This document shows positions 1 to 16,933 of a DNA stretch of 29,763 bases, piece by piece. Source of the DNA: Phycisphaerales bacterium (GTDB lineage: Bacteria; Planctomycetota; Phycisphaerae; WQYP01); NCBI GenBank assembly GCA_027451365.1, contig DAIDJN010000048.1, positions 1 through 29,763 of the forward strand. Direction: 5' to 3'. Both the position numbers and the translations under genes were made by a program. The notes under the pieces are model-generated. The model searched no databases, was not told the origin of the DNA, and saw only the letters and a program-made list of their open reading frames with translations. Each line of letters opens with the position of its first letter. Positions within the stretch are counted from its first letter, which is position 1.

Positions 1-13
1 TTTTAGCCATGAT

Positions 14-190
14 GTGTCCATTCATCAGAGCCGCGTTGGATGATGCGGCGCCGTGGAAAGTGATCCCCCAGAACAACGGAGTATGTGTCCATTCATCAGA
101 GCCGCGTTGGATGATGCGGCCATTTATCATTCTAATATGTAAAACGTTTTTTGTGTGTCCATTCATCAGAGCCGCGTTGGATGATGCGGC
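14..190 (-). CRISPR. CRISPR array, 3 identical 36-nt repeats (crRNA sense GCCGCATCATCCAACGCGGCTCTGATGAATGGACAC), truncated by the left window edge
   Basis: Identical copies at 14-49, 85-120 and 155-190; unique spacers 50-84 (35 nt) and 121-154 (34 nt); partial spacer 1-13. Minus orientation inferred from the leader/cas side, the ...GACAC 3' end (Cas12b-like) and tracrRNA complementarity. Confidence 0.98.
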
Positions 191-357
191 AGTCGCACTC
201 GCAACTGTTTATATTTCGGCCACTTAACGCAGCCGTTGCGAGCATGACGATTTTCCGAGCGGCTGTCGCCACCTCAGTCACCCCTTTTCGCCGCCGACAA
301 TTTTTCTTCTGCGGCCAAAAATGGGGGTTGCGAGCACGCCCCGCACCCCCACGCACC
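191..357 (-). promoter_or_regulatory. CRISPR leader
   Basis: Non-coding stretch between the tracrRNA and first repeat; AT-rich patch at 206-216; GTTGCGAGCA direct repeats (235-244, 327-336) and an inverted CTCGCAAC (198-205). Confidence 0.75.
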
Positions 358-358
358 A

Positions 359-376
359 CCGCCGCACTCGCGGCGG
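359..376 (-). terminator. GC-rich hairpin, probable 3' end of the tracrRNA primary transcript
   Basis: CCGCCGC-ACTC-GCGGCGG perfect 7-bp stem just after the second anti-repeat. No U-tract on the minus strand, so terminator function is uncertain. Confidence 0.4.
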
Positions 377-516
377 CAAAGCCGCATCAGCCAACTTGTC
401 AAAGAGCAGTCGGCCGCGGCCACTGCCGCAGTCAACGCGAATCTGAAGAATGCCGAGTGCCACGCCCATTGACGGGGAAGACACATACTCGGAAATGCGC
501 CCTCCTGTAGAGGGCT
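359..516 (-). ncRNA. tracrRNA of the Cas12b system
   Basis: Minus-strand RNA: 5' hairpin GCCCUC/GAGGGC (515-499); stem CCGAGU/ACUCGG (492-487 with 458-453) enclosing GUGUC (484-480, pairs with repeat 3' GACAC) and a small inner hairpin; then anti-repeat CAUUCUUCAGAUUCGCGUUGACUGCGGC (452-425) pairing with repeat nt 1-31 with mismatches and a bulge. 3' end uncertain. Confidence 0.9.
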
Positions 517-521
517 AAATC

Positions 522-550
522 ATTCTACCTAAAGAAGCTGCCGACAACAA
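522..550 (-). promoter_or_regulatory. sigma70-type promoter for the tracrRNA
   Basis: Minus strand TTGTTG (550-545), 17 nt, TAGAAT (527-522); predicted +1 at 516/515, exactly at the start of the first tracrRNA hairpin. Confidence 0.8.
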
Positions 551-553
551 GGA

Positions 554-3500
554 TCATTTGATGAAATCGTGAAGCCATTGGACAACTCGGTATTCAACTT
601 TATTCCAATATTCTTTGCGATCATACCAGGCCTTTTCCTGCATCGGCGGCGTGGATGAGAGGTCGCGCCATCGGTTGATGATTTCTCTAGGCACTTTTAT
701 CTTCGATTTTCGTCTTTTTCCAGCAGCGAGGATCTCGGCGTTCTCATCGGGTGATGCCTGCGGCGTGCCGAGGGGCGTTCTGTCATCAAATAGCGGACAG
801 CCGCCTACTTTCTCAGGGTCGGGGATATATGTTGCGGTTTTACACGGCACATACCACCACTTTCCGGTAAAGTCGGGATCGAGCAAAACCTTGAGGCCGA
901 TGTTGGCGGCGGCGTTGAGGTCGGCCTGGAGGCCCTTGGCGGCGGGCGACCCGGCGTCGGCGGAGACGAAAAGTTCGCCGCCATTCGCGGGGATGCGCAC
1001 GGGCGGTAGTTTTTCCCAGTTCTCAGGATTGCCGCTGAATTTTTCATCAAGTGCCAGCAGATAGCGATCGCGGGCAGCGCCGCCGTCTTTCTCATCCCTT
1101 TTCATTTTTGCGGTCTTAACCTGTTTTCGCCACCGCGGCGCGGTCATGAATTCCGTCACCGGCACATCGGAGCAACGTACGCCCGGCGCACCGGTGCGTG
1201 AATCCTGACGTGATGTGTAGCCCGCCTGAACTTCACGCAAATGCAGTCCGTGAAGCTGGCAGGCTTCGGCGAGGTACTTCTTGACTTTCGACGATGACCA
1301 ACTCATCAATTGCCTGTTTTCGCGGCGGGTGCGCGTCTCCTCAGGCCGGTAGTTGGTCAGGTCCTCAATGACCACGGCATGACATGGCGCATATTTCGGA
1401 GATGGCTCTTCCTGCCATACCCAGCGCTCTTTCGACCTGCCGTCTTTCATCTCGGGCAACTCCATTTCCTTCCAATGCCCACCCAGCCCCAGCGCGGAGC
1501 CGGCAATCCGGCTGGCCAGCTGCTTGACACGATTCTCACGCATACGTTCCATGGCTGTGAGAATGGAATCGGCCAGGCCGACGTTGGTTTCGCCCTTATC
1601 CGGCGCGCCGCGTGGCCGGTCCGGGGTGGCACGCATGGCGAAGGCCTTATGCAGTTGGTAAAGCGATTTCATGGTGGCAATGCGCGTGAGTGATATGCCA
1701 CCGACGTGGCGTTTCCACGCAACGCTCGTTTCTCCGGCCACGCTGCGGCCCATGATCCAGTCGGTTAACTGGCGAAGGTCGGCGTGGAAGCCCGCGGCGG
1801 CCTTATCGCCTAAGCGCGGGTTGCCGTCGTCCTTGTGCCAGCGGTCATGCCACGCTTGGAACAGAGTCGTGCGCGTGGCAGCGGTTAAGTTTTCCGCCAG
1901 CGGCTTGAGCTTTTCACGCAGCGAGTCCTCATCCTTGCGCCGCTGCTGGCGGGTGCGGTCGTCGGCTGTGCCGGCATCGCGCCTGGGGGGATATATTTTC
2001 CACGCCCCTTCGGGTGTGGCGACATGCTGATTCCACAATTCGCGCGCCGCTTGATCGTCCCATTTGCTTTCCGAGGCCATGGCATGCCAGTCAAAGAGGG
2101 CGTCGGTGAGCAGTTTGATATGGGTCGCATCGCCCTGCTGGAAGATGGTGGGCTTACCGCCGACGCCGAGGAGTGTGTTCGTTTTCGGACCCAGGGCATA
2201 GGCGATCTTGGCCCGGCGCGCATGGCGTTTGAGGGCGAGGGTGGCGATCCGAACCCCACGCGCCATAAGTTCATCCACGCGACGAGAGCGGATGGCGCCC
2301 TCTTCGGCGAGCAGGCCAAGGCGAGCGGCCAAGTCCTTGACGAGGGCAGCTTCCGCAGTGGAGGCGGCGCGAGGCGAGGTTTCCTCGCCCTGGAGCTTGA
2401 TGAGGAATTGGCGCTCCAGTCGCGCCCACGGAGCGGGATGTTCGATGCCATCGAGTTTGTCCGGGCCGATGCGACGGAAGATGGTGGTGCGCTTCCTACC
2501 GTCCGCTTTCGAGGTGGGGATGTGGAGGAACAGGTTTGACTCGGCGGGCGGAACATGATTGGCCGCCTGGCAGGCTGCTTCCATCTGCGTGCTCGTGAGG
2601 GTTTCCCATACGGCGCAGGATGCGGCATAGCGGTGGCCAAGGTCCACCGAAAGGAGGCGGAGACCGGGGAGGCGGGAGAGCATGAGCTTGGCGTGGCCCT
2701 TTCTTGCGCGCTCCGTGTCCTTAACGAGGCTCCCGTCCTTGCCTAGCTTGGGCAGTTTGTTGATTTCCTCAAAGGGCCAACCGTCCCAGTCAATATATTG
2801 CGTTCCTCTCTTCCGCTTCTTACCCGTCTCCTCATCCCTGGGCACCGTGCGCGCAAAGGGAGTCTTGTCGGGTGCCGCCTGAATGAACTTGTACCACGGA
2901 CCATTTTGCTCAAGTTCCATCGAAACGACGAGGCTCCAGCGCAATTGCTTTTTGCGTTTCTCCGCGCGTTCAAGGAACGCCATTTTCTTGACGGCATCCG
3001 TCTCCTTGGCGGCCTTGTCCAGTTCCTTCTGGATGCCAGCCAATTCGCCGCGTACGGCTGCCAGAGATCCGTTCCATCTTGGCTCTTTGATTCTGCCGCC
3101 GCCAGTAACGTCCTCACCATCTTCGCGCGAGCGGGCATCGACCGCTTTGGGATCGAAAACACCGGCGACTTTCGCCGGTATATCGGGGGTCGCAAGTCCT
3201 GCCGCCGCCGCACCGAGACGACCGCGGCGGGTCACTTTCGGCAGCTTTTCGCCATCTTTCGTCGCAGCATCGCACGCCGATCCAATTTCCCGGTCAAAAC
3301 GCAGGCTTGAGCCATTCAAGACGGTGATTTTGGCGCGCTTTTCCGACGGATTCCAGGTCAACAATCCAATGGCGCGTAGGTCGTTTCCCGCCGGTTCGTC
3401 TGTGAATGCCTTGAGCCGTCGGAATTCAATGGCCGGGCGGGAAACGCCGAATTGGCAAAAGACTGGATTTAGATATGCGTGGGGGTGCCGATAGGCCGCG

Positions 3501-5014
3501 ACCTTGAGGCGGTGCGCCTCACTTCGCGCCTTCATTCCGGCTACGAATCGCTTGAGAATATCCGCATCAGTCGCATTGTTGCGCATCCAGACTGGACAAT
3601 ATTTTCGATCGGCAAACCGGATGAATAAATTTGGATCGCCGAACTTCTTCTCCTTGTTTTCTTCCTGGGATTCCTTGACCGCTTCAATCCGCTTTTCTTC
3701 GGCCCGTTCGGGGTCAGCATCACTGATGCACGCCCAACTGGCGATGATCCGTTCCCAGCCCGTGATCTGTGCCGGTCGAATCCGAAACTCTACCGTCGCA
3801 CCCGATTCGATGCGGTACTCGGCGCAATAGGCGGTCAAAGCGGACAATGCCGCTGCAAATACCGCGTCTCCCTCCATTTTTTTTAGGTCGGCGTCGGCCG
3901 CTTGGCGTCCCTGTCGATCCGCCTCCTGTTGGCGCTGTTTGGTCCAAATCTGCGCCAGTCGCGAGGCGGCTTTGGAGAACATCTCTCGATGAAGTTCCGA
4001 TTGCGACCTGCCATCCTCTTCAGGTTGCCCGTCTGTTTTCGATGCTTCTGGTGTACCGCGCACCGGAATGCCAGTTTGCGCGAGAAGGCATTTTTTAAGA
4101 TGCTCATGCCATTTGTCGCGAAGCAATAGCGAACGGCCCGGCTTACCAAAAGGCTTGCCCGCGCCCAACAAATGGGAGAACGGGTGCCGTGTTCGCTGAG
4201 CGGCGCCTTTTGACGACTTCGAAACGGCCTTCTGCCTTTCATCGGCGTCATTCTCGTCTTCGTTGTCATTCTCACCTGTCGTATCGCCGTTCTTCTTAGC
4301 CTTTTTCGAAACAGAAAACGTGAGGTAATCGTCCTTCAAAATAAACCAAAGAAGTGTCTTGGCGTCCCTTCTGGCTTTTTCGGTGTCGGTTCCGGTCGCG
4401 AGAAGCTCATCAAAGGATCTACTTCGATTCACCCATACGGCATCCTTTCGGATCATTGCGTCCAGCGATGCTTTGCAGGCGTGAAGCCATGTTCCCTGTT
4501 GGCCTCCAATCGGCTGCGACAGATCACCAATCTCGGTATTGTCCACACCACGATTTGCGAGAATTTCGTATAGCGCCGCGAGGATTTTCTCTGGCGGATC
4601 ATCGCTCTTGGCTGCGATATTCGGCGCACCACTCTCTGATTCCACACTCAACCAAGATAGCGCTAGCAGGATTCGTCGGTTGCCAACGGCCTCCATGGAA
4701 TTGGCCTTCTTATCGAGTTCCTCTCGCACCTCGTCGCGCGTCGGCGGCGTCTCCTTCTTCTTCTTGGCCTCGCTTTCCTTCTTTTGCAATTCTTTCGTGA
4801 TTTCCTCATCGCCAATCTGGACACGTTCCAAGCGGTGATCCAGCCCTCCCCGTAACGTCAACAGCCAATCGCCGAAGACCTTGGCACCCTTGTTGACCGC
4901 CTCGTGCGTGGCCCAGAGCGCATCGCGCCATGAATTGTCATTTTTATCTGTGCCGCGCAGCCGAAGCGTATATGCCCGTTGTGTAGTGTTTGGTTTGTCA
5001 CGGTGATCTGGCAT
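554..5014 (-). CDS. cas12b: Type V-B CRISPR effector Cas12b (C2c1), about 1486 aa
   Basis: N-terminus TQRAYTLRL...LWATHEAVNKGAKVFGDWLLTLRG; RuvC-I LLSVDLGHRYAA, RuvC-II AVVIEDLTNY...RRENRQLMSWS, RuvC-III QADLNAAANI; next to cas4-cas1, cas2, tracrRNA and array. ATG at 5014 follows GGAAGGA, preferred over the TTG at 5026. Confidence 0.95.
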   Translation of the reverse strand: MPDHRDKPNTTQRAYTLRLRGTDKNDNSWRDALWATHEAVNKGAKVFGDWLLTLRGGLDHRLERVQIGDEEITKELQKKESEAKKKKETPPTRDEVREELDKKANSMEAVGNRRILLALSWLSVESESGAPNIAAKSDDPPEKILAALYEILANRGVDNTEIGDLSQPIGGQQGTWLHACKASLDAMIRKDAVWVNRSRSFDELLATGTDTEKARRDAKTLLWFILKDDYLTFSVSKKAKKNGDTTGENDNEDENDADERQKAVSKSSKGAAQRTRHPFSHLLGAGKPFGKPGRSLLLRDKWHEHLKKCLLAQTGIPVRGTPEASKTDGQPEEDGRSQSELHREMFSKAASRLAQIWTKQRQQEADRQGRQAADADLKKMEGDAVFAAALSALTAYCAEYRIESGATVEFRIRPAQITGWERIIASWACISDADPERAEEKRIEAVKESQEENKEKKFGDPNLFIRFADRKYCPVWMRNNATDADILKRFVAGMKARSEAHRLKVAAYRHPHAYLNPVFCQFGVSRPAIEFRRLKAFTDEPAGNDLRAIGLLTWNPSEKRAKITVLNGSSLRFDREIGSACDAATKDGEKLPKVTRRGRLGAAAAGLATPDIPAKVAGVFDPKAVDARSREDGEDVTGGGRIKEPRWNGSLAAVRGELAGIQKELDKAAKETDAVKKMAFLERAEKRKKQLRWSLVVSMELEQNGPWYKFIQAAPDKTPFARTVPRDEETGKKRKRGTQYIDWDGWPFEEINKLPKLGKDGSLVKDTERARKGHAKLMLSRLPGLRLLSVDLGHRYAASCAVWETLTSTQMEAACQAANHVPPAESNLFLHIPTSKADGRKRTTIFRRIGPDKLDGIEHPAPWARLERQFLIKLQGEETSPRAASTAEAALVKDLAARLGLLAEEGAIRSRRVDELMARGVRIATLALKRHARRAKIAYALGPKTNTLLGVGGKPTIFQQGDATHIKLLTDALFDWHAMASESKWDDQAARELWNQHVATPEGAWKIYPPRRDAGTADDRTRQQRRKDEDSLREKLKPLAENLTAATRTTLFQAWHDRWHKDDGNPRLGDKAAAGFHADLRQLTDWIMGRSVAGETSVAWKRHVGGISLTRIATMKSLYQLHKAFAMRATPDRPRGAPDKGETNVGLADSILTAMERMRENRVKQLASRIAGSALGLGGHWKEMELPEMKDGRSKERWVWQEEPSPKYAPCHAVVIEDLTNYRPEETRTRRENRQLMSWSSSKVKKYLAEACQLHGLHLREVQAGYTSRQDSRTGAPGVRCSDVPVTEFMTAPRWRKQVKTAKMKRDEKDGGAARDRYLLALDEKFSGNPENWEKLPPVRIPANGGELFVSADAGSPAAKGLQADLNAAANIGLKVLLDPDFTGKWWYVPCKTATYIPDPEKVGGCPLFDDRTPLGTPQASPDENAEILAAGKRRKSKIKVPREIINRWRDLSSTPPMQEKAWYDRKEYWNKVEYRVVQWLHDFIK

Positions 5015-5058
5015 ATGTCCTTCCAATCAGTTTTGACGTTCAAAAGGGGCGCGGTCGC

Positions 5059-5349
5059 CTATATCACCACCATCCCGCTCTCCGCCTTGGGCAAACTTTC
5101 GCCGACCACCACGGCCGCGGCGCGGGCGGCAGTCTCGTCGCTCCCAAGGTCGATGATGATCGCCTGATCCTCACGCGCGTTCAGTTCGGTCTCAAGCTCG
5201 CTCTGCATGCGCACCCGGTCTATATCCTTGAGCACGCAGAAGAAAACCGAATATTGCCAATGCTCACCAAAGCCCTTCATGGCCTTAAAAACGCGCCGCC
5301 ACCGCTTCGGTTCATGTATATCGTAACAGACAAGATAACAACGTCGCAT
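5059..5349 (-). CDS. cas2: CRISPR-associated endoribonuclease Cas2
   Basis: 96 aa; YLVCYDI...KRWRRV...GEHWQYSVF Cas2 motif; GAGGTG RBS. Confidence 0.97.
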   Translation of the reverse strand: MRRCYLVCYDIHEPKRWRRVFKAMKGFGEHWQYSVFFCVLKDIDRVRMQSELETELNAREDQAIIIDLGSDETAARAAAVVVGESLPKAESGMVVI

Positions 5350-5361
5350 AATGTTGTCACC

Positions 5362-7068
5362 TCATCGCGTGGTCAAAAACGAAAGCGTCGAAATATCGTC
5401 CGCAACCCAAGCGGCGATCATTCGGGCGTGCAACATCAGCATCCGCCTGTAACTTAAGCGGTAGCCCAGAACCGGATGGGTAATTTCCGTATCCATTCGC
5501 CGACCCCATGCCTGAAAAAATGCCCGGCGGCCGTGGTCCGTCATCGCGCAACCCGCAGCGGTTGAATTGAAATGGCCTTCCCCCACCTCGCCGCGGTTAA
5601 ACAGGCTCACCGCAACTGAATCCGCAATCAGCGGGCGGAACGGCTCCATAAGGTCCAGTGCCAGGGCTGGCCGTCCGGGCCGGCAAGTGTGCATGGCTCC
5701 AATGGCCGGCTCCAGCCTCGCCAGCCGCAGCGCCGAAACGCATTCATTGCTCAACATCGAATAGCCAAACGAAAGCACTGTATTTATCGGGTCAGGCGGG
5801 GGCCTGCGGGCGCGGCCGTTGGCATCAAATTTCCCGGAGAATGGGGCCTTAAATATTCCACCGAACAGACCAAAATATATAGCCGCTGCCTGACCTTCAA
5901 TACCCAGCAATTGTTCGGCGTTGTCGCAGACCACAGCGCCGCGGGCGAGGTCGGTCAGCCGCCCAGCCGCCGCGTCAGGCAGCGCCGGATGGTTGCGCAT
6001 CAGGATGGTACGCTGATTGGTGATTTTCGCCGAAATAAGGGCGCGGGAAAGCTGAATCGCAGTACTGGAATCATCAAACCGCCGAACCTGTTGTCGGCGA
6101 ACCAGCGAGCTTACGGAATCCAACGCGTCCACCATCGCAATCAGCCGGCCAGCGGAGCTCATATACGCCAAGGGGATGCGGTGGTCCGCCAGCACGCCCA
6201 GGGCTTGGGTGGAAACCTGCACGTTCCCCAGAACCGCAAGGCTTTCCAAATTGGCCAGGGGAATTTCGCGCACCAGTTTCCCGTCGTAATCTGTCACCCG
6301 GAGGCTGTTGCCGCGAACGCCGATACGGACGCCTTCCTGTTGGGCGACAAGGTGGACCGCGTCGTCGCGAGGCGGCCAGATTCGCCGGGGTATGTCATCA
6401 GGCTTTTTTTCAAACGCAATCTCGTCCGGGAGGCAGATTGGTTGAAGCGAACAGCGCAGGCACCGGGCATCGCGCACCAGCGGTGCCGGACGGGGACCCC
6501 GCGCGCAGGTCCTGGCGGATTGCAGGGTGGCCAGCGCCTCGGATCGCAACGCCGCGTCAAAGGGCACCTCCAGTCGGCGCTTCTCCGCGGCGTAATAAAT
6601 AACTCCGCGCTCCACGCTATAGCCCGCCTCTTCCAGCAAAATGCATTGCAGCCCTAACTGGACGCGATCCGTGGGCCAGGGCGTTGCGGCAGCCAACGGG
6701 GGCGGGTCGCACTCACCGGGATCGTCCGGCGGCGGATTGACGCTGTTAAGTTGCGGCCGCCCTTTGCGATATTCAACTGGAACAGCCGCCACCCCCTCTA
6801 TCTCCGCCAAATCGAGCGTAGCAGTCAGTCCATGTTTCTGGCTGGTAAGCACCAGACTTCGCACAACACGGGGCCGTTCGGGGTCGGCGGCGGCCACCGC
6901 GTCGCCAGCGGCTGCCGCGCTGGGCTGATCAACCCGGCGGTGAACCGCCTGCCCTTTTTCCGTGTCCGCACTGGCAATATGAATGCCTTCCACCTCCATG
7001 AAATAGAATAGACGCGGGCAGTATGCGAACTCTGCCACATTTCGGGCGGGCCAAAGGTATTCGTCCAT
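5362..7068 (-). CDS. cas4-cas1: Cas4-Cas1 fusion
   Basis: Cas4 domain (YCPR, LDLAE..VEYRKG, QLGLQ, CLRCSLQPIC Fe-S cysteines) followed by Cas1 domain (LLGIEGQAA, MH..RPGRPALALDLMEPFRP). ATG at 7068 lies 8 nt after GGAG. Confidence 0.96.
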   Translation of the reverse strand: MDEYLWPARNVAEFAYCPRLFYFMEVEGIHIASADTEKGQAVHRRVDQPSAAAAGDAVAAADPERPRVVRSLVLTSQKHGLTATLDLAEIEGVAAVPVEYRKGRPQLNSVNPPPDDPGECDPPPLAAATPWPTDRVQLGLQCILLEEAGYSVERGVIYYAAEKRRLEVPFDAALRSEALATLQSARTCARGPRPAPLVRDARCLRCSLQPICLPDEIAFEKKPDDIPRRIWPPRDDAVHLVAQQEGVRIGVRGNSLRVTDYDGKLVREIPLANLESLAVLGNVQVSTQALGVLADHRIPLAYMSSAGRLIAMVDALDSVSSLVRRQQVRRFDDSSTAIQLSRALISAKITNQRTILMRNHPALPDAAAGRLTDLARGAVVCDNAEQLLGIEGQAAAIYFGLFGGIFKAPFSGKFDANGRARRPPPDPINTVLSFGYSMLSNECVSALRLARLEPAIGAMHTCRPGRPALALDLMEPFRPLIADSVAVSLFNRGEVGEGHFNSTAAGCAMTDHGRRAFFQAWGRRMDTEITHPVLGYRLSYRRMLMLHARMIAAWVADDISTLSFLTTR

Positions 7069-7728
7069 GGTCAATTCTCCACCTTTATTGGCCGGGAAAA
7101 CTGTGCGCAGGCATCCGCCAACGGGCGTAAGCAGTACAAATCAGTCCAATGCACCCACTCTATTTTCGGAATATGGAGGCGGTTGCCATCAGTTCAGGCA
7201 CCTTATGGGGCGTTGGTCCATTAAGGGAGGATCGCTTGAATTTTTAAGCGGCCGTCTCATTTTGAAAAGTCCGCCCGGCCGCAGGAAACGCCGATTTTCC
7301 AACGCACGCCAAAAAACGCCGCAAAGAGCCGCCGACCTGTCGGCGGGAAATTCTGGAATCCCAAATCCCCCAGGCAGAATGCCAAATTCCGTCTTTCCTC
7401 GCGCGCACCTGATCGCCTGATCAACGGATCACCTGTTCTCACGTCAGCCAAGAGGCGAAATTCCGGTACGGCGGGAGCCGCCTATTGAGATTGATCAGTG
7501 ATCCGTGATCAGTGTTCTTTATATAGCTTCCCTGTTCTCGGCGCAGCCGTGCCGTAGGATGGCATGAGCGTTTTGCTACATGCCGGCCGGAGTATCAAAG
7601 CCATTTCATGTCTGGTACCGGGCGCGACTGGCCGCCTATTTTGGGTTCGCGGCAGTGTACTAAATCGGCTACGGCTCTTTCACGCCTGCAAATTAGTATT
7701 GAAGCCCTGGATTTGCTATGCTCCAGTC

Positions 7729-9165
7729 ATGACAACCGATTCGGCTACCGTTTATCCTTTCTGGCTTTCCGGCCAGCAACGGCATGGCCCCGCCGTACCG
7801 GTGCTCAATCCGTATGATGGTTCGATTGTGGGCGCGGTCTGCCAGGCGCGGACCGAAGAACTTTCAGAGGCCGTGGCCGCCATGAGACAATGCGGCGGCC
7901 GCCTGATGGAACGCACTCCGGCCGATCGACAGGCTGCCTGCAAGTGCGTGCTGACGGGATTGCAGGCACAGCGCGAAACGTTCGCACAACTTATTTGCCT
8001 GGAATCCGGCAAGCCGATTGCCACCGCACGGAGCGAGGTGGAACGGGCCATCGCAACATTTTCGCTGGCGGTGGAGGAAAGCGTCCGGCCCGCCAGCGAG
8101 CGCCTTTCAGTGGAAAACCAGCCTGCCTTCAGGAACTACGACTGCCACGTGGAGAGGGTGCCGGTCGGCCCAAGCCTGTTTATCGCACCTTTTAATTTTC
8201 CGCTGAATCTGGTCGCCCATAAGGTCGCACCCGCGCTGGCGTGCGGTTGCCCTTTTATTCTCAAACCCTCTGACCGCACGCCGCTGACGGCACTGCGGCT
8301 GGGTGAACTGCTGGCGGCGGCAAATCTGCCCGTCGGTTCCTGGCATATCCTGCCGACCGCAACCGCGAATATTCAGGCGATGGCAACCGATCCGGACATT
8401 GCACTGATTTCATTTACCGGCTCGGAAAAAGTTGGCTGGGAACTGTATCGTCAGGCGACGGGCAAGACGGTATTACTGGAACTTGGCTCCAACAGCCCGG
8501 TTATAGTGGAACCCGATGCCGATCTGGCGGACGCGGCCGAACGGATTGTGCGCGGAGCCTTTGGCTACAGCGGGCAAAGTTGTATCAGCGTGCAGCGTAT
8601 ATATCTGCAAAAAAGCATAGCCGCCGCATGCACGCGGATGCTGGTGGAAAAAGCGCAAGCCTTCCGCCCCGGGGACCCGCTTGACCCCCGAACCGATATC
8701 GGCCCGATGATCGATCTTGCGGCGGCTCGGCGCGTGGAACAATCGGTGCGCGACGCGGTGACCGCCGGCGGCAAACTTCTTTGTGGCGGGCAGCGGACTG
8801 GAAATTTTTATCCGCCCACACTCCTGACCGATGTCCCGGAAAATCAGCCGGTGGTGTGCGAAGAAATTTTCGGTCCGGTCGCGGTGATTCAGACTTATGA
8901 TACTCTGACGGAGGCCATTCAAGCGGCCAATTGTTCGCGTCTGGGTATTCACGCGGGTATTTTCACGTTTAATCCGATCTCGATTCAGTTGGCTTGGCAT
9001 CAGTTTGATTTTGCCGGTGTCGTCATCAACGATGTTCCGACCACGCGGGCCGACGCGATGCCCTATGGAGGCGTTAAATACTCGGGCCTTGGCCGTGAAG
9101 GTGTGCGCTACGCCATGGAACACTTGACCAGACCCAAAGCACTGCTGACGCGGCATGCAACTTAA
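7729..9165 (+). CDS. NAD(P)-dependent aldehyde dehydrogenase family protein
   Basis: PFNFPLNL, ILKPS, SFTGSE, LELGSNSP, GQSCIS (catalytic Cys), EEIFGPV, PYGGVKYSGLGREG. Start moved to ATG 7729 because the upstream 55 codons look non-homologous. Confidence 0.93.
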   Translation: MTTDSATVYPFWLSGQQRHGPAVPVLNPYDGSIVGAVCQARTEELSEAVAAMRQCGGRLMERTPADRQAACKCVLTGLQAQRETFAQLICLESGKPIATARSEVERAIATFSLAVEESVRPASERLSVENQPAFRNYDCHVERVPVGPSLFIAPFNFPLNLVAHKVAPALACGCPFILKPSDRTPLTALRLGELLAAANLPVGSWHILPTATANIQAMATDPDIALISFTGSEKVGWELYRQATGKTVLLELGSNSPVIVEPDADLADAAERIVRGAFGYSGQSCISVQRIYLQKSIAAACTRMLVEKAQAFRPGDPLDPRTDIGPMIDLAAARRVEQSVRDAVTAGGKLLCGGQRTGNFYPPTLLTDVPENQPVVCEEIFGPVAVIQTYDTLTEAIQAANCSRLGIHAGIFTFNPISIQLAWHQFDFAGVVINDVPTTRADAMPYGGVKYSGLGREGVRYAMEHLTRPKALLTRHAT

Positions 9166-9228: not shown

Positions 9229-11505
9229 TCAACAAATAGCTATTCGTTCATTGTATGAGCGGGCGGCACGCCGGCAAAAGATATATGGAACCGACGCCGG
9301 AGGTGCGGCCGGCGAGCCACGCGCGTAATTTAAAATGAAAGTTCGCGCCACAGCACCGGCCAGATGCACCGCGCCATCAGTTGGATAGGGCCGCTGCGAA
9401 AGACCGGCCCACGGATTTAATTCCGCTTTGTCGCCCGGTTTTGCCACGGCTATGTGCGGCCTGCGGGACAAGCGGGCACTTGCCGGCCCACCGGATGTCC
9501 GATTCGGCGCGTTGCGCAGAATGAAACTCACCGCGCCATACCCCGGATTATCCAGATAACGGGCATATTCGCGCCGGCCAAGGTCGTCAACAGCACGGCG
9601 GCACAAGTCTCCGGTAAGAGGACTGGGTTGGTCTGACCAGGCGGTGACCACCACATCCGCCCGACCGGTGGAAAGCAAATCTCCAGCGCGGTCCAGCACC
9701 GCGGTAACCGGGGTGTATGGATGGGCCAGCGTTTCGCATGGACCATGAATGCCAAAGCGAATCGCCGCAGAGGAGGCGGCATTGGAATAAACCGACCGGG
9801 AAAAATGCAGCGGAGACGCATATCTGCCATCCGCATCCAGCATGGAATCCAGATAGGCGATGGTGCTTTCAATCATGCCCCAGGCGGTATAAAGCAAAAG
9901 AGCGATGCGGTTGGAATCCACATTGGACGGATTCAATCCCGCCGCCTGCCAGGCCTGCTCAATCACCGTACAGGCCAGCGCCGCCACCGGGTCAAGCTTT
10001 TGCGTTTCCGCTGGCGCAACAGGTGATGGTTGCCGCCCAAGCCATTGAAAATCGACCGAATCCGGACATTGTTCCGAGGCGGCTTCACCGGCGCGTAAAT
10101 CGGATGTGGCGGCCGCCACAATGTCGGCGGCATCTTTAAAATCGGAAGTACGCACGCCCATTCCCAGAATTTCCAGCCATTGGCGATCCGCAGACCACCA
10201 ATTACAGCCGGAAATTGCCGGTTCGGCGGCGGACCGCGGATCGGCGGAAAATATCAGTGCCGTGTTGTTGCCACCAAATGCGAAGTTGCAATTCAACGCA
10301 GTTCCCACCGGCTGCTCCACAGATTCCAATGCCAGCGGCAGCAGCGGCTTGCCATCTGCGGCCATTTCCGGGTCCTGGCAACCGGCATTCGGGGGCACCC
10401 GTCCCCGGTCTATGGCCAGAACGCAGATCGCCGATTCCACCGCCCCGGCCGCGCCAAACGTATGACCAGTAAGCCGTTTAGTGGAACTGACCGGCGGGAC
10501 CGCGGCACCCGCACGTCCCCAGATTTCCCGAATGGCCAGTGATTCCATCAGGTCATTGTCACGTGATGCGGTGCCGTGGGCGTTGATATAATCAATGTCT
10601 GGTGGTGTCATGCCGGCATCGGCCAGGGCCAGTTCTATGGCGCGCTGCGCCTGTGCGGCGGAAGGGTCAGGTTTGGTAATATGAAACGCGTCGCAAGTGG
10701 CGGCAAAACCGCGGATGTACCCCAATGGCCGAGCCCCGCGTTTAGCGGCATGTTGCAAAGATTCCAATATCAGAATTGCGGCACCTTCACCCACGGTAAT
10801 GCCACGGCGGTTCTGGTCAAACGGACGGCAGCCGTCCGCGGCTACCAGTTTCAAACTGTTAAACCCGGAAATAATCAGGCGGCAGAGCGATTCTGTCCCA
10901 CCTGCCACGGCCATCGATATCTTGCCCAGACGAATGGCATCCACGGCAGCGCCGATGGTCATGGCCGATCCAACACATGTGGTCAGGTTCATATATAGCG
11001 GACCGCTTATTCGGTGGCGTCTGCAAAGCAATTCCAATGCCTCATAGGGCTGAATGCGCCGCATCAGATTTGAATCGGCCGCGGCGGCATCACTGCGGAA
11101 GACGGCATAAAATTTTTCGTTGCCATCCATGCCGCAAACCGTAGTGGCCAGAAAACAGCCGACGGTTTTGCCCAGAAAGGCGAGCGTTCGCGGCAGACCG
11201 GCGGATTTAAGCGCCTCGTCGGAGGCGGCGCACGCAAGCTGTTGGGTGCGCGCAAGTGTTTTCCATAGAGCCGGCTTCAAGTCGTCCGGGCAATGCGGTG
11301 TGGGGCACTGGGCGACGCGAATCAGCTGGAGCGCCGCGGGAAGATATCCCCGCCACGGGGCCAGAGAGTCCGGCGCGCTGTGAATTGCAGCCCAGGTGGT
11401 GGCGACATCCGCTCCAGCGCAGGTGACCATGCCGATGCCGGTAACGGCCACCGCCGCCGACGGCTCGCGAACTGCGCCCAAATTCTGACCGGCTGAATCA
11501 TTCAT
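9229..11505 (-). CDS. beta-ketoacyl-ACP synthase (FabF-like) fused to a C-terminal chain-length-factor-like degenerate KS domain
   Basis: N-domain: TTCVGS (Cys), INAHGT, STKRLTGHTFGAAG, NFAFGGNN. C-domain: ASPLHFSRSVYSNAAS...FGIHGP without a catalytic triad. Start overlaps the upstream stop (ATGA). Confidence 0.85.
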   Translation of the reverse strand: MNDSAGQNLGAVREPSAAVAVTGIGMVTCAGADVATTWAAIHSAPDSLAPWRGYLPAALQLIRVAQCPTPHCPDDLKPALWKTLARTQQLACAASDEALKSAGLPRTLAFLGKTVGCFLATTVCGMDGNEKFYAVFRSDAAAADSNLMRRIQPYEALELLCRRHRISGPLYMNLTTCVGSAMTIGAAVDAIRLGKISMAVAGGTESLCRLIISGFNSLKLVAADGCRPFDQNRRGITVGEGAAILILESLQHAAKRGARPLGYIRGFAATCDAFHITKPDPSAAQAQRAIELALADAGMTPPDIDYINAHGTASRDNDLMESLAIREIWGRAGAAVPPVSSTKRLTGHTFGAAGAVESAICVLAIDRGRVPPNAGCQDPEMAADGKPLLPLALESVEQPVGTALNCNFAFGGNNTALIFSADPRSAAEPAISGCNWWSADRQWLEILGMGVRTSDFKDAADIVAAATSDLRAGEAASEQCPDSVDFQWLGRQPSPVAPAETQKLDPVAALACTVIEQAWQAAGLNPSNVDSNRIALLLYTAWGMIESTIAYLDSMLDADGRYASPLHFSRSVYSNAASSAAIRFGIHGPCETLAHPYTPVTAVLDRAGDLLSTGRADVVVTAWSDQPSPLTGDLCRRAVDDLGRREYARYLDNPGYGAVSFILRNAPNRTSGGPASARLSRRPHIAVAKPGDKAELNPWAGLSQRPYPTDGAVHLAGAVARTFILNYARGSPAAPPASVPYIFCRRAARSYNERIAIC

Positions 11506-12767
11506 GCGCCAAAGCCTGTTGAAGCGGACAATCTTTCCACCGCATCCTTCGGATGGCTTCCTTCGCCGGGGCCGGTTTTGTCGCGGCGGGAAAGAATGGC
11601 ACTTGCGAGCGGATTGGACCGGTTCCAGACATCCCCACTCAGAATCCCGATAATAGCCTGACGCGCCGCCGCAGGCTGGTGCGGTGCGAAAAACAGATTG
11701 CGCACCAGATCCCGCTGGTAGAATCTTCCAACAAACGATTCAAACACAGCCAGACCCTGATCCATTGTTTCTGAATAACCGCTTAACTTGTCCATGGAAC
11801 CGGACCCTAAAAATTCTTTCACTGCGGCAGCCGCCAGTTTTGCGGATGTAAGGGCCAGATGCACGCCGCTGGAGAAAATCGGGTCCAGAAAGCCGCCCGC
11901 ATCACCTATCAGCATGAATCTGGGCCCGGTTTTTTGCAGGCAACGGTAGCTGTAATCCGAGACAGCTCGCCAATCCGCCAGAGGCGTGGCACGGTCGATG
12001 CGGCTCTGAAGCGTCGGTGATTGGGCAACCGCCGCCATGAATTGTTGCCGCAGGTCGAGATTTTTCCCAATGCCCTTCTGCCCCAGCACCGCCCCGACGC
12101 TCATGCTGCCATCGCGCAACGGAATGCACCATATCCAGCCGTGAGGAATCATGTGCATGGTAATGTATTGCCGTTCATGTTCGGCGGCGACGGGCAAATC
12201 CTGAAAGTAGTTGTAAATCGCAAGTCGGCCAAAATCCGGCAGCATTTTTCTTAACCCCATCCGCCGAGCCAGGAAGCCCGCGGCACCTGATGCGTCCAGC
12301 AGAAAATCAGCGGTGTATGAGGTTCCATCGGCACATTGAAGGTGGACCGCTTTTTCAGAAAATGCCGCATCCACAACGGCCCGGTTTTCCAGAACTTCGG
12401 CACCGCTTGCAATTGCCACGTCGCGCAACTGCTGATCAAAAATGGATCGGATAACTTGAAATGCGGGTGGGGAATCGCCATTGGACAGAGAAGCGAATTC
12501 AAATGTCCGCATGTCGCCGCTGGCGGGGTCGAAAAATCTGGCACCAAATTTATGCTGATGGTGGGATTCCATAAAATCCCGCCCCAGGCCCGTTTCATGA
12601 AGAATCGGCATGCTATGGGGCAGAAGCGATTCCCCAATATGGTGTCGCGGATGTGCGCCGGCCTCCAGCACACGAACAGTTATTCCACTTTTGGCCAGAA
12701 GGGCCGCTGCCGCAGATCCGGCGGGGCCGCAACCCATGATAATCACTTGTGTGTGTGTGGTCGTCAT
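11502..12767 (-). CDS. FAD-dependent oxidoreductase, flavin-dependent halogenase-like
   Basis: GCGPAG, PRHHIGESLLP, HKFGA (Lys), WIWCIP (WxWxIP), GDAGGFLDPIFSSGV. Start placed at ATG 12767. Confidence 0.85.
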   Translation of the reverse strand: MTTTHTQVIIMGCGPAGSAAAALLAKSGITVRVLEAGAHPRHHIGESLLPHSMPILHETGLGRDFMESHHQHKFGARFFDPASGDMRTFEFASLSNGDSPPAFQVIRSIFDQQLRDVAIASGAEVLENRAVVDAAFSEKAVHLQCADGTSYTADFLLDASGAAGFLARRMGLRKMLPDFGRLAIYNYFQDLPVAAEHERQYITMHMIPHGWIWCIPLRDGSMSVGAVLGQKGIGKNLDLRQQFMAAVAQSPTLQSRIDRATPLADWRAVSDYSYRCLQKTGPRFMLIGDAGGFLDPIFSSGVHLALTSAKLAAAAVKEFLGSGSMDKLSGYSETMDQGLAVFESFVGRFYQRDLVRNLFFAPHQPAAARQAIIGILSGDVWNRSNPLASAILSRRDKTGPGEGSHPKDAVERLSASTGFGA

Positions 12768-12884
12768 ACACTTATTTTCCGTCAAGAGTTGCCGGCGGGC
12801 AAGGGATGCCTGGAAAATAACGCGCGGCGAAATTTTCGTACCGGCATTGTTACCCCGCCTTGGATATTCGGCCGGGTTGAGCCA

Positions 12885-13913
12885 TCACCAGCTTTGCAGA
12901 TCCCCAAGAAGTTCTTCCACAAGGTCTTTCATGGTCACCAGGCCTATTGCCTGCCCCTGCCGGTTGACCACCACCGCTATTGTTTGGCGAGCAGCCTGCA
13001 TCAGCCGAATTGCGGTGCGTACGGATTGTTCGCCAAGCAGCGTCAGCGCCGGTTTTAAATGCTGGCGCAATTGCAGTTCGCCACTGCTTCCGATGGCATC
13101 TATCACATCCACAAGTCCCAGCACATCCTGGGCCGACCGCCCCAGCACTGGCATGCGCGACACATGGTAGTGCCGCACCATGGCCTCGAAACCGCGGCGG
13201 CTGATATTCACCGGCACGCCGATGACGCGGTTCCATGGCATCATCACCTCCCGCACATGAATATGGGCTATACGCAGACCGCGTTGAATCAGGTCCTGCT
13301 GCGTGTCAGTCAGCACACCGGTTGCCGTCGGTTCAGCTGTAAAGGCCAGCAACCTCGGCGGCGGGTCCACCTGCGGTGATTCAAGCATGTGGCCGATGAC
13401 GCGACGTGTCAGGAAATCCAGCACTCGCAGCAGCGGCAGAACCGGCAGCACGGTGATCACCATAAGCGACCAGCTCAAAAGCCGGGAAAGCCGATAGGTC
13501 CAATCATCGGCATGGGTTAAAAACAGATCCTTGGGCAGAATTTCAGCAAAGATCAGCATCAGCGGCAGTACGATCAGCGCCGACAAAAGCGTTTGAACCG
13601 TGGGGGAATATTGTCGCTGGCGGATAAGTTCGGCGACGCCCGCCGACACCATGAAATTGCAGATATTCTGCCATATCAGCAGTCCGGCCAGCGGGCCGGC
13701 GGGCTTTTTTATCCATTGGTTCAGCCGCAGGGCCGCAGTATCCTTTTTCCAGCCGCGAAGCTGCAGCCGCGGGCGCGAAAGCACATAAAAACCCGTTTCC
13801 ATGCCGCTGAAAATCATGGAACCAAAAAGTCCCACGGCCGCGACGAGCAGCCATGGCAGCCAGGGAGGCAACGCAGCGGAGGAGACCCTCATCATGCTGA
13901 TCACGCAATTCAT
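12885..13913 (-). CDS. CNNM (DUF21)/CBS-domain membrane protein
   Basis: FSGMETG, IFAEILPK, VREVMMP, SRMPV, GLVTMKDLVEELLG; hydrophobic N-terminal segments. Exact start uncertain. Confidence 0.9.
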   Translation of the reverse strand: MNCVISMMRVSSAALPPWLPWLLVAAVGLFGSMIFSGMETGFYVLSRPRLQLRGWKKDTAALRLNQWIKKPAGPLAGLLIWQNICNFMVSAGVAELIRQRQYSPTVQTLLSALIVLPLMLIFAEILPKDLFLTHADDWTYRLSRLLSWSLMVITVLPVLPLLRVLDFLTRRVIGHMLESPQVDPPPRLLAFTAEPTATGVLTDTQQDLIQRGLRIAHIHVREVMMPWNRVIGVPVNISRRGFEAMVRHYHVSRMPVLGRSAQDVLGLVDVIDAIGSSGELQLRQHLKPALTLLGEQSVRTAIRLMQAARQTIAVVVNRQGQAIGLVTMKDLVEELLGDLQSW

Positions 13914-15256
13914 TGCAGGCTCCCGGGTTTGCCCACACCTGAATCCGGATGATCTTCCGGTGGCGAACCGGAGGTTGGAGAAAGCGTCTCTGCCTTATCC
14001 GCCACGCATATTCGCACCCGGCCGACGCGCGGGCCGCGCATGGTTTCCACCGTAAGCCGGACATTGGGCAGCCGCACCGAATCCCCGGGTCTGGGAACGC
14101 GGCCGAGTTCGGCGTAAATCAGCCCACCGAGGGTCGCCGCCCGCCGGGAGGCATTTCGTCCGCTCAGCAGTTCAGCACAATCCAGCAAGGATACATCCCC
14201 CGATGCGGTCCATTCGTCCGGCCCGGCTGGTTCCAGCCTTTCGTTCACCGGGTCACCGGGTTCTGAAATTTCGCCGATCAATTGTTCCACAACATCTTCA
14301 ATGGATACCAGTCCGGCCACTCCACCAAACTCATCGACCACAATTGCCATCTGGATATGGTTGTCGCGAAAGGTGTTCAGCAGGCGTCCGACGGATTGAA
14401 GCTCGGGAACAAATTGCACCGGCTTGAGCAGTGCTTTAAGCGCAACGGTTGAAGCGGGCTTTTCCAGAAGCAGAGCCTTGGCATACACCACGCCCAATAT
14501 ACTGTCTATCTGCCGGTCATAAACAGGAATTTTGGATAAATGCGTCCGCAGGAACAGTTCGCGCAAATCTTCGATGGGGCGACCAATATCAAAGCCGACC
14601 ATATTCACGCGCGGCACCATGACATGGCGCACGCGCAATTCGCCCAACCTCAGCACACGTTCGATCAACTGATTTTCGCCCACATCAATCATTCCCTCTG
14701 TCTGGGAAAGCGCCAGAAGTTCACGTAATTCACCCAGCGACAGCCCTTCCGGGCTTTGCGGTCGACCAATCAACCGGGCCGCCGGCAGAATTACCAGTTT
14801 TTGAAGCACCGAGACCGCCGGTAAAAGAGTCCGAACCAGCGGCAGCAGCAACGCGGCAAAAACAGGTGCCAAGGAACGGTTGAATGTGCGGCCGATCATT
14901 TTCGGCATTACTTCGCCGACATAGGCCACCAGCAGAAGTGGTGCCGGCGCACAAGCCAGAGCCACAGCGCCGCCGGACTGCCGGGCAATGGAGGCGAGCA
15001 GGACGCTGCTGAAAATAAATACCAGGGTGGTACAGGCCATGTTAAACAACAAAATGACAATTAACAGGGACCGGCCCATATCCCGCAGGCGGGCCACGGT
15101 GGCTTCGCGGCGGCTGCGGCTTTTTCGAAAATAAAGAATATCCGCCCGTGTCAGCGAAAAAATGGCTGTTTCACTGCATGAAAACACCGCGGCCAACAGG
15201 AGCGTCGCCCCCGCGGGGAGAATGACATTGATATGATCCAGCAGAAGTTTCATCAT
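13910..15256 (-). CDS. Hemolysin/CNNM-CBS-CorC_HlyC family protein
   Basis: FSCSETAIFSL, GEVMPK, VRHVMVPR, SKIPVY, VVDEFGGVAGLVSIEDVVEQLIGEI, C-terminal TLGGLIYAELGRVP. Start placed at ATG 15256. Confidence 0.92.
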   Translation of the reverse strand: MMKLLLDHINVILPAGATLLLAAVFSCSETAIFSLTRADILYFRKSRSRREATVARLRDMGRSLLIVILLFNMACTTLVFIFSSVLLASIARQSGGAVALACAPAPLLLVAYVGEVMPKMIGRTFNRSLAPVFAALLLPLVRTLLPAVSVLQKLVILPAARLIGRPQSPEGLSLGELRELLALSQTEGMIDVGENQLIERVLRLGELRVRHVMVPRVNMVGFDIGRPIEDLRELFLRTHLSKIPVYDRQIDSILGVVYAKALLLEKPASTVALKALLKPVQFVPELQSVGRLLNTFRDNHIQMAIVVDEFGGVAGLVSIEDVVEQLIGEISEPGDPVNERLEPAGPDEWTASGDVSLLDCAELLSGRNASRRAATLGGLIYAELGRVPRPGDSVRLPNVRLTVETMRGPRVGRVRICVADKAETLSPTSGSPPEDHPDSGVGKPGSLQ

Positions 15257-15343
15257 GCCAAAAAAGCCCAGGGCCGCCGGCGCGTGTTTTTCGTCGCCGC
15301 CGATGTTTGACAATATCCTATTTTCGCCGAATATGCCCGGTTT

Positions 15344-16933
15344 ATGAAAGTGTCATGGAAAAAATATTGGATAGCCGTTTCGGGCGGTCAAGTTGGCGAG
15401 CCGGTGGCAAGCCGCCGACGGAGCATTTGGCGCGTCGGTCTGGCGGTGTGGTTCGCACTGCTGCTGGCCAGCGCTGGCTCCTGTGCGCAGAATCCGGATA
15501 CGCCGACCGGACGGGGCATACGCATTGGGCGCCTTGCACACAGACTGGCGAATGCGGCCAACCCTTATCGTCAAAGAATCCGGGCGGATCGGCAACTTGC
15601 GGCCCTTGTGGGAACGAACAGTTCTATCCGGCTTCATTTGTTGACTGACATTATTTGCGACCCAACAGATTCGCCGCGAATTAAAGTTTATGCCCTGGCG
15701 CGTCTGGCCCACTGCGAACCGGGCCTGGCCAGACACCTCCTCCATCGGCGGATTTATAAAATGGAGCACTGGCGGGTGTTAACCGCGGCCTGCCAATGGG
15801 CTGTTTCCCTGCATGACCGCGGGTCTTTGAACGCACTTTTTCGATCACTGAAGCGTCCGGCACGGCGGTTTGCGATCCCCCATCGACCCGAGGCCGCCGC
15901 CATTCGATATTTGTGTCATTCCACACTGACGCAGGCGTTATGGCAAAGACTGGCGCAGGGCGGCGACATTGCAGCCCGGTTGGCGGCGCTGGAAATTCTA
16001 TATCAGGTGCATGGCAGGGCAGCCGTTAAAGCGGGCATACTGAAGCTTGTTCCGCGCGACCCGCTGATTGCGTCGCTAAGCTGGTACATTCGCATATTTG
16101 GCTATGTGCCGCACCGGGCGACGGAAGTGGCATGGATAGAACAATTGGATCATCAACCTTCCGCCGACATTGTCCGACTGGCCCGGCAACGTATCGGCCG
16201 CGTAACCGGCCGGGGAAAAATGCGCCACGGTATAGCGCCTCGGTACCTGAAATTGCTGGCAATACTGGTAAAGCCGGCCGATTATCCGTCCGCGCTTGCA
16301 TTAAAAAGGCAGGTCGCCAGTCTGCTGGCAACGCACCGGCATATTCGCAGACCGGTTCCCTATGCCGGCGCGCCGACTGACATCAATCCGACACTTGCCG
16401 CCAATGCCGATCGACTGACCTATTGCGATCTGCTGCTGGTCAGAACAATGTTGCAGGCCCTAAGCCAGGCATCATTTGTCCACAGTGTGTGGCGGCTGGG
16501 AAAGGCGTCGCGGCGCGACACTTCTTCCGAACAGGGCGGACTGATTCTTGCCAATCACGGACAACCCAAACAGAGCGGACCGCGGCTGCGCCTTCGGCTG
16601 TTCGCACCGGCAATGCGCTTGAATAACACTATTTATGTGTCAAGTCCGCAATTGCTGATGGCCACGCCGCACGGACTGGCCGAGTTTATTTTTCATTTTC
16701 AGAGGCGCCACAATGCCCGTTATACCGGTCCGGCGGAAGGGGATTTAAAATATGTCCGGCATAAAGGCTGCAGCGTGGTGATCTTCACCTCCACAGGCCG
16801 CCGAAAATTTGACACGGTATTGGATACTCCCACCGGCGCGGTACTGGACTTGGGAATCAGCGCCGCAGAAAAGTCTATCGCGGCAGTAAGGCGGGTGATG
16901 TATCCACAGCCGTCCCCACAAGCGTTGCCATGA
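15344..16933 (+). CDS. Hypothetical exported/membrane-anchored protein with a helical middle and a degenerate JAB/MPN-like C-terminus
   Basis: 529-aa ORF; hydrophobic segment ending AGSC; C-terminal EQGG...FIFHFQ...GPAEGD. Confidence 0.6.
   Translation: MKVSWKKYWIAVSGGQVGEPVASRRRSIWRVGLAVWFALLLASAGSCAQNPDTPTGRGIRIGRLAHRLANAANPYRQRIRADRQLAALVGTNSSIRLHLLTDIICDPTDSPRIKVYALARLAHCEPGLARHLLHRRIYKMEHWRVLTAACQWAVSLHDRGSLNALFRSLKRPARRFAIPHRPEAAAIRYLCHSTLTQALWQRLAQGGDIAARLAALEILYQVHGRAAVKAGILKLVPRDPLIASLSWYIRIFGYVPHRATEVAWIEQLDHQPSADIVRLARQRIGRVTGRGKMRHGIAPRYLKLLAILVKPADYPSALALKRQVASLLATHRHIRRPVPYAGAPTDINPTLAANADRLTYCDLLLVRTMLQALSQASFVHSVWRLGKASRRDTSSEQGGLILANHGQPKQSGPRLRLRLFAPAMRLNNTIYVSSPQLLMATPHGLAEFIFHFQRRHNARYTGPAEGDLKYVRHKGCSVVIFTSTGRRKFDTVLDTPTGAVLDLGISAAEKSIAAVRRVMYPQPSPQALP

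Follow-up and report, generated by a model that had tools for sequence, protein, structure and literature searches.

A type V-B locus of the large Cas12b branch

The window analysed here, the whole stretch from position 1 to 29,763, is the entire contig C48 (DAIDJN010000048.1) of a Phycisphaerales assembly of 4.06 Mb in 88 contigs. At its left end lies a CRISPR-Cas locus made up of cas4-cas1, cas2, cas12b, a trans-activating CRISPR RNA (tracrRNA), a leader and an array, all on the minus strand. The three gene frames are open, and each start is preceded by a site resembling a ribosome-binding site. The features are as follows.

5362..7068, minus strand: cas4-cas1 fusion, 568 aa, type I-G/V-B kind (Cas4g/Cas1g)
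5059..5349, minus strand: cas2, 96 aa, best PADLOC model Cas2g
554..5014, minus strand: cas12b, 1486 aa, large NiCas12b-like branch, RuvC residues D791, E1217 and D1365
522..550, minus strand: putative tracrRNA promoter, -35-like 550-545 and -10-like 527-522 with 17-nt spacing
433..515, minus strand: tracrRNA core, with the elements of the solved ChCas12b single guide RNA, as cofolded
396..407, minus strand: boxA-like antitermination element (12-mer), behind anti-repeat 1 and a variable insert
381..395, minus strand: second anti-repeat, directly after the box, complementary at 14 of its 15 positions to repeat nt 1-15
191..372, minus strand: leader, beginning with a GCGAG motif
1..190, minus strand: CRISPR array, repeats 190-155, 120-85 and 49-14, severed by the contig end
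154-121 (34 nt), 84-50 (35 nt) and 13-1 (partial, 13 nt), minus strand: spacers

All three proteins score above the cut-offs of their family profiles: Cas12b with 705.7 bits against 150 (NF033949) and 92.2 against 27 (PF22126), Cas4-Cas1 with 615 bits against 560 (NCBIfam Cas4g/Cas1g, NF049935), and Cas2 with 60.2 against 23.8 (PF09827) and 36.9 against 24.5 (NCBIfam Cas2). Cas12b residues D791, E1217 and D1365 align with D767, E1220 and D1364 of ChCas12b, reported as its proven catalytic residues (PMC12204704), and do not vary among all 98 proteins aligned. The length of 1486 aa rules out type V-B2, the Cas12b2 effectors of which are given as ~700-800 aa (PMC10691335). The locus is thus very probably a type V-B CRISPR-Cas system of the standard kind, belonging to the large (~1500 aa) Cas12b branch.

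A preliminary description of this DNA, made from the sequence alone, had proposed a complete type V-B system with a long, much less characterised Cas12b. The type V-B assignment is borne out by the Cas12b family score, the RuvC triad, the cas4-cas1 fusion with cas2 and the tracrRNA, and the large branch by the protein's length and its grouping with ~1500-aa proteins; the repeats, described as identical, are indeed three identical 36-nt copies. Completeness holds for the genes, tracrRNA and leader, which are intact, but the term does not apply to the array, which the contig end severs after two whole spacers. The tracrRNA does lie downstream of cas12b, but it does not strictly abut the stop codon as had been described, as its stem 1 begins 40 nt past the stop with the -10-like box 527-522 in between.

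The comparison by BLASTP, profiles and phylogeny that had been suggested revealed no near-identical protein: the closest of 654 matches is 52% identical, and the window protein is alone in its 90% cluster. The 120 best of the 654 matches span 1164-1888 aa. The preliminary description had likened the N-terminus to Cas12b of the Desulfatirhabdium butyrativorans type; no sequence of that name appeared. Over its whole length, the nearest named protein is P0017, or MCP9456315.1, which is NiCas12b of Nitrospira sp. (1440 aa, 46% identity; Zhang et al. 2024, PMC11423069). NiCas12b belongs to the sister clade and has the same tracr core and a 36-nt repeat ending in the same five bases; relative to it, the window protein carries a charged insertion of ~27 aa close to the N terminus, and ~47 aa around residue 903 are missing from it. 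The best match in the PDB is 9KLN (E 9e-217), a 1496-aa protein fitting ChCas12b of Candidatus Hydrogenedentes (PDB 9KLN-9KLQ; Li et al. 2025, PMC12204704), and the 1496-aa product of locus L033 begins in the same way as ChCas12b and has 41.5% of residues identical to the window's. ChCas12b has the same RuvC triad and, as described there, the same three-stem tracrRNA with two repeat:anti-repeat duplexes; it differs in the PAM-reading segment of helical I (PAM, protospacer-adjacent motif) and in its cas12b-first locus. The prototypes AacCas12b and BthCas12b (PDB 5U30 and 5WTI; 1108-1137 aa) share the RuvC region and the family profile (E 1e-21 to 7e-24), but they are ~350 aa shorter and their similarity is mostly confined to the RuvC region. 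Their cas4-cas1 fusion is described as related to type I-G, as in the window (PMC9419969).

NiCas12b is reported to use a TTN PAM and to edit human cells and mouse liver (PMC11423069), ChCas12b likewise has a TTN PAM and four cryo-electron microscopy structures (PMC12204704), and a clade of ~1500-aa Cas12b1 proteins with their own adaptation module has been presented (Altae-Tran 2023, PMC10691335). The branch is therefore known and characterised, contrary to the preliminary description. Judged by sequence comparison, what is new here is the Cas12b protein sequence itself, the branch and the gene order being known already.

Array, leader and spacer targets

To place these features in context, related loci were collected by using as the query 43 aligned homologues out of the 120 listed; a search with the single window protein returned no locus. 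The resulting set of 160 loci, not deduplicated, comprises the best 80 of 120 genome matches and the best 80 of at least 359 metagenome matches. In the window, the GCGAG motif lies 181 nt before the first repeat, and its distance is 168-172 or 176-181 nt in 79 of the 80 loci having the motif. The leader also contains an AT-rich hexamer (213-208), a possible -10 box. The repeat has three matches in the whole assembly, all in this array. Each of the three copies is followed by an A, and a relative in sequencing run X6 diverges at that very base, which sets the repeat length at 36 nt.

Contigs of four public runs were compared with positions 1-7500 at 90% likeness. In runs X2 and X6 the same repeat stands beside other spacers. 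In run X3, matches have loose ends at positions 50 and 84 that are long, unlike the repeat and bound exactly spacer 2, and we infer that they belong to one protospacer contig matching this spacer. The three bases 5' of that match, on the guide strand, are TTG, which fits a TTN PAM in this one case. Viral contigs scanned for exact copies of parts of spacers 1 and 2 gave no matches, and a comparison of the spacers with the host assembly gave nothing longer than 16 nt outside the array, with no self-target seen.

The tracrRNA and the proposed working of the system

Stem 1 (514-500) opens the tracrRNA core. After stem 2 comes a 5-nt segment (484-480) with complementarity to the final 5 nt of the repeat, and after stem 3 comes anti-repeat 1 (453-433), which is complementary to repeat nt 12-33. 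Its position agrees with the placement of V-B tracrRNAs between cas12b and the array given in PMC6342934. Among 28 loci hand-picked for diversity, 11 of 16 predicted tracrRNA pairs show two-sided changes; the covariation helix at columns 34-37 is probably mis-predicted, because these columns are the known repeat-pairing segment. An Rfam scan of 1-8000 returned a single chance-level match to an unrelated family, so the identity of the tracrRNA rests on homology and covariation, and the fold of 556-355 taken by itself is not significant (z -1.6). Of 87 distinct loci, 76 carry a TAnnnT hexamer 32-55 nt ahead of the tracr core, compared with 133 of 1740 background windows; a strict sigma-70 scan did not list the putative promoter at 522..550. 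Only 6 of the 87 loci have five consecutive T between the core and the leader. At loci L025 and L057 a second tracr-core-like sequence was seen on the minus strand, in the opposite orientation and with no array behind it.

In the proposed working of the system, Cas4-Cas1 and Cas2 would add spacers of ~35 nt at the leader end, as expected from the Alicyclobacillus system (Wu 2022), and would capture them without Cas12b, in line with PMC9419969. The tracrRNA would base-pair with the 3' portion of every repeat, and the duplex would be trimmed by a nuclease of the host, probably RNase III. Together with both RNAs, Cas12b would find a 5'-TTN PAM and cut both DNA strands with its single RuvC site, leaving staggered ends, as demonstrated for NiCas12b and ChCas12b. 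The intact motifs, the differing spacers in related strains and the one target with a TTN-type flank lead us to infer that the system is active.

Several points weigh against this picture. The PAM-reading segment of ChCas12b (P289, G290, K292, K334) has no clear counterpart in the window protein, which shares with NiCas12b a shorter, different loop at this place; TTN is therefore taken from the measured PAM of NiCas12b and not from structure. At the locus itself, the PAM derives from the single putative protospacer of run X3. In addition, 4 of 15 orthologues in PMC11423069 and 4 of 14 in PMC6342934 are reported to have worked in foreign hosts, so that intact-looking orthologues often fail there.

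A boxA-like element and a second anti-repeat

The exact 12-mer at 396..407 occurs three times in the 4.06-Mb assembly, and the other two copies precede ribosomal RNA (rRNA) genes, 417 nt before a 16S gene (contig C58) and 323 nt before a 23S gene (contig C40). It resembles the Escherichia coli and Bacillus subtilis boxA consensus as quoted in PMC13753749. Since it is found only here and before 16S and 23S genes, this putative element is most likely a boxA antitermination signal, and the host has genes for a NusB-family protein, Rho and RNase III, each over its cut-off. A boxA upstream of CRISPR arrays, as in the window, has been reported by Stringer et al. 2020, as cited in PMC7862264 and PMC13753749; unlike in those arrays, the box here sits directly behind the tracrRNA, and the cited passages do not deal with type V-B. 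No V-B description of a tracrRNA-adjacent boxA or second anti-repeat was found in the literature searched, a coverage outside which key papers lie.

With a loose pattern, a box-like motif was found in 66 of the 87 distinct loci. Looser versions of the box also stand in the leaders of the host's own type I-G and type I-C arrays; the loose pattern gave 31 matches against 10.7 expected. A scan of viral contigs with a tracr-plus-box pattern gave no matches. At L171:9150-9350 the tracr region has no match to the common core, yet the box and the GCGAG leader are kept. Elsewhere in the host, four box-like sites (C6:32105, C41:29769, C58:1962 and C84:48435) share upstream and downstream context and are possibly a repeated regulatory element; at the two of the four that were checked (C41 and C84), no rRNA or tRNA gene lies nearby.

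The second anti-repeat reaches p of at most 0.01 against shuffles in 18 of the 66 box-motif loci, the window included, and thus in 18 of the 87 distinct loci; when tested without gaps, 11 of 56 had p of at most 0.05. In these 18 loci it tracks the repeat, as the locus's own repeat pairs best in 10 and beats the mean foreign repeat in all 18. The counts for box and second anti-repeat include kin, whose shared features make them overstate independence. In the lowest-energy fold of the 395-nt read-through RNA, both anti-repeats pair with the first repeat, with a mean pairing probability of 0.74 for anti-repeat 1 and 0.37 for the second. The duplex is stronger on the sense strand in 16 of 18 loci; we do not count this asymmetry as support, because sense energy was the criterion by which the loci had been chosen, and anti-repeat 1, as the control, gave 47 of 87.

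Because boxA acts in the nascent RNA, transcription of the array should start upstream of 407, and these features suggest that it would most simply start at the tracrRNA promoter. They further suggest a single tracrRNA-leader-array transcript able to pair in cis, the boxA of which would shield it from Rho. In a fuller and rather speculative form, which we consider possible but doubtful, one promoter behind cas12b would in part of the branch yield a boxA-protected tracrRNA-boxA-leader-array RNA. Its anti-repeat, in two parts (453-433 and 395-381) that meet at the box, would cover nearly the whole 36-nt repeat, open the repeat hairpin and pair in cis with the first repeat. The newest spacer would thus be served by a tracrRNA on the same transcript, which would make this RNA a natural single-guide precursor favouring the most recent spacer. 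Speaking against read-through and cis pairing, the NiCas12b locus (L009, cas12b first) and the ChCas12b locus lack both the box and the second anti-repeat, and both proteins work with 75-nt-type tracrRNA fusions.

An alternative, to which we give somewhat less than even chances, is that 407-381 is not part of an RNA mechanism at all: the second anti-repeat would be a relic of the inverted repeat copy that gave rise to the tracrRNA, or would serve the integrase as a site on the DNA, and the array promoter would lie in the leader, where the hexamer at 213-208 could serve as its -10 box. This would be consistent with the 48 of 66 box-motif loci that have no significant second anti-repeat, with the absence of the motif from 21 of 87 loci, those of NiCas12b and ChCas12b among them, and with the modest pairing probability of the second anti-repeat in cis. 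The count of G-U against A-C mismatches within the second anti-repeat (10 versus 7) is not decisive. The alternative fits less well with the identity of the 12-mer to the host's own rRNA-leader sequence, given that boxA works as RNA, and with a second anti-repeat that changes along with the repeat.

Three further ideas were discarded. TTGACA within the box could be read as a -35 element, but no -10-like hexamer was seen by eye 17 nt on; helical phasing of the box with the first repeat found no support (R 0.27 at 10.5 nt, 66 loci); and a link between the second anti-repeat and stronger repeat hairpins was not upheld (medians -11.4 versus -8.4 kcal/mol, p 0.08). The arrangement also recalls the leader-repeat hairpins of type II-A and VI systems, in which an upstream segment is likewise complementary to the first repeat and which are described as blocking extraneous crRNA (CRISPR RNA; PMC13187072). 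In the window, pairing would involve the 5' half of a repeat from which a functional guide has to be made (repeat-guide layout), which excludes crRNA blocking of the II-A/VI-B style.

Adaptation genes and gene order

The Cas4-Cas1 fusion has the residues C17, C203, C206 and C212, which we take to be the Fe-S cysteines of Cas4, and E391, H460 and D472/E475, presumably the acidic and histidine motifs of Cas1; these columns are invariant in 73 of 73 aligned relatives with a residue there. At the Cas4 nuclease motif, where we would expect E-x-K, residues 99-102 (6763-6774) read E-Y-R-K. A crippled Cas4 was ruled out as the explanation, since R occupies this position in 69 of 73 relatives and is the norm of the branch. 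Upstream, ~490 nt (7075-7560) separate cas4-cas1 from a divergent aldehyde dehydrogenase gene, and no sigma-70-type promoter passed the promoter scan in this interval.

A contig of run X6 departs from the window sequence immediately past the cas2 stop (5061). At a likeness of at least 90%, the depth of run X6 is ~12-31 over cas4-cas1, cas2 and the tracr/leader region and 0-2.75 in the cas12b bins, a drop which indicates that relatives exist with a different effector, or none, behind a near-identical adaptation module; an effector swap in the X6 relative is possible. Such relatives would be consistent with a decaying or inactive effector of intact sequence, in a locus kept mainly for its adaptation module, and the 24 of 160 related loci without cas1 despite an upstream flank of at least 3 kb likewise show that such loci lose parts. 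We nevertheless judge this explanation improbable for the window, as the frame of 1486 codons is open, all three starts have RBS-like sites, the tracrRNA pairs are intact, and the catalytic residues are invariant.

The preliminary description had also set the adaptation-first order apart from the prototype. Of the 160 loci, 41 have cas1 upstream and 68 have it downstream; in 1 it is inverted, and in 50 no cas1 was found in the flank. The order of the window thus occurs in 41 of the 110 loci with a placed cas1 and is not special; among 104 distinct full-length effectors, the corresponding numbers are 36 upstream, 50 downstream and 18 without cas1. In PMC11423069, cas12b comes first in 11 of 15 loci. 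A third layout was seen at L007:11018-13240, where inverted adaptation genes lie beyond a short array.

In a FastTree tree of 98 effectors (near-identical sequences dropped, branching read by eye), the window belongs to a clade (support 1.0) whose three other members of known order, L003, L008 and L081, all have cas1 and cas2 upstream, and this clade is sister to that of NiCas12b, with cas1 downstream (support 0.86). The two orders interleave: L024 (upstream) groups with L133 and L083 (downstream) at support 1.0, and L031 (downstream) is nested among upstream loci. The modules themselves are mosaic. Among the fetched loci, the effector is nearest to NiCas12b, Cas4-Cas1 to L171 (74% identity, same host family), and the tracrRNA to the Planctomycetota loci L025, L031, L017 and L012; as each is nearest to different loci, reshuffling explains the gene order. 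The effector of L171 is distant from that of the window (1531 aa, 31.5% identical).

A separate V-B subtype, marked by the adaptation-first order and working by a mechanism of its own, as the uniform order in the window's strongly supported clade and the greater frequency of the second anti-repeat in upstream-order loci (9 upstream, 2 downstream and 7 with cas1 absent or unplaced, of 18) might suggest, is highly improbable and largely refuted by the switches of order inside well-supported clades, by Cas4-Cas1 proteins ~52-74% identical to the window's in most loci of both layouts, and by the common tracr core. On this comparison, two layouts are common; adaptation-first is one of them and does not imply a different mechanism.

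Other CRISPR systems and neighbouring genes of the host

A second CRISPR system, type I-G-like, lies at C29:100-10700 (minus strand), with genes resembling cas7/csb1, csb2 and cas3 as judged by eye, cas2, an array and a cas4-cas1 fusion of 625 aa that shares 34% identity with that of the window; its leader has the same box-like plus GCGAG layout as the window leader. A third, type I-C-like by eye, occupies C81:1-8800 (minus strand) with cas5, cas8, cas7, cas3, cas4, cas1, cas2 and an array; its cas4 is separate, and its leader contains a box-like motif. A further array with the same repeat as that of C81 stands at a contig end (C56:48-470).

Within the window, a row of genes at 9229-15313 (minus strand) codes for two membrane proteins of the CNNM/CBS kind, an oxidoreductase resembling flavin halogenases and a double ketoacyl-synthase of 758 aa; they may form a small pathway for lipids or polyketides. 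Two open reading frames, of 529 aa (15344-16933, plus strand) and 232 aa (18972-19670, plus strand), have no Pfam match; the latter comes after an extracytoplasmic function (ECF)-type sigma factor and may encode its anti-sigma factor.

Implications

At ~52% identity to the nearest sequence and 46% to NiCas12b, this Cas12b is a fair orthologue to screen, from a branch that has already given working, specific editors, and its guide RNA and likely PAM can be read from the DNA. The native boundaries of tracrRNAs in this branch may reach past the usual anti-repeat, and expression of the array may depend on host Nus factors. Such a dependence, or a longer tracrRNA, could bear on the failure of intact V-B loci in foreign hosts, and the same RNA arrangement could bear on how the newest spacer is favoured.

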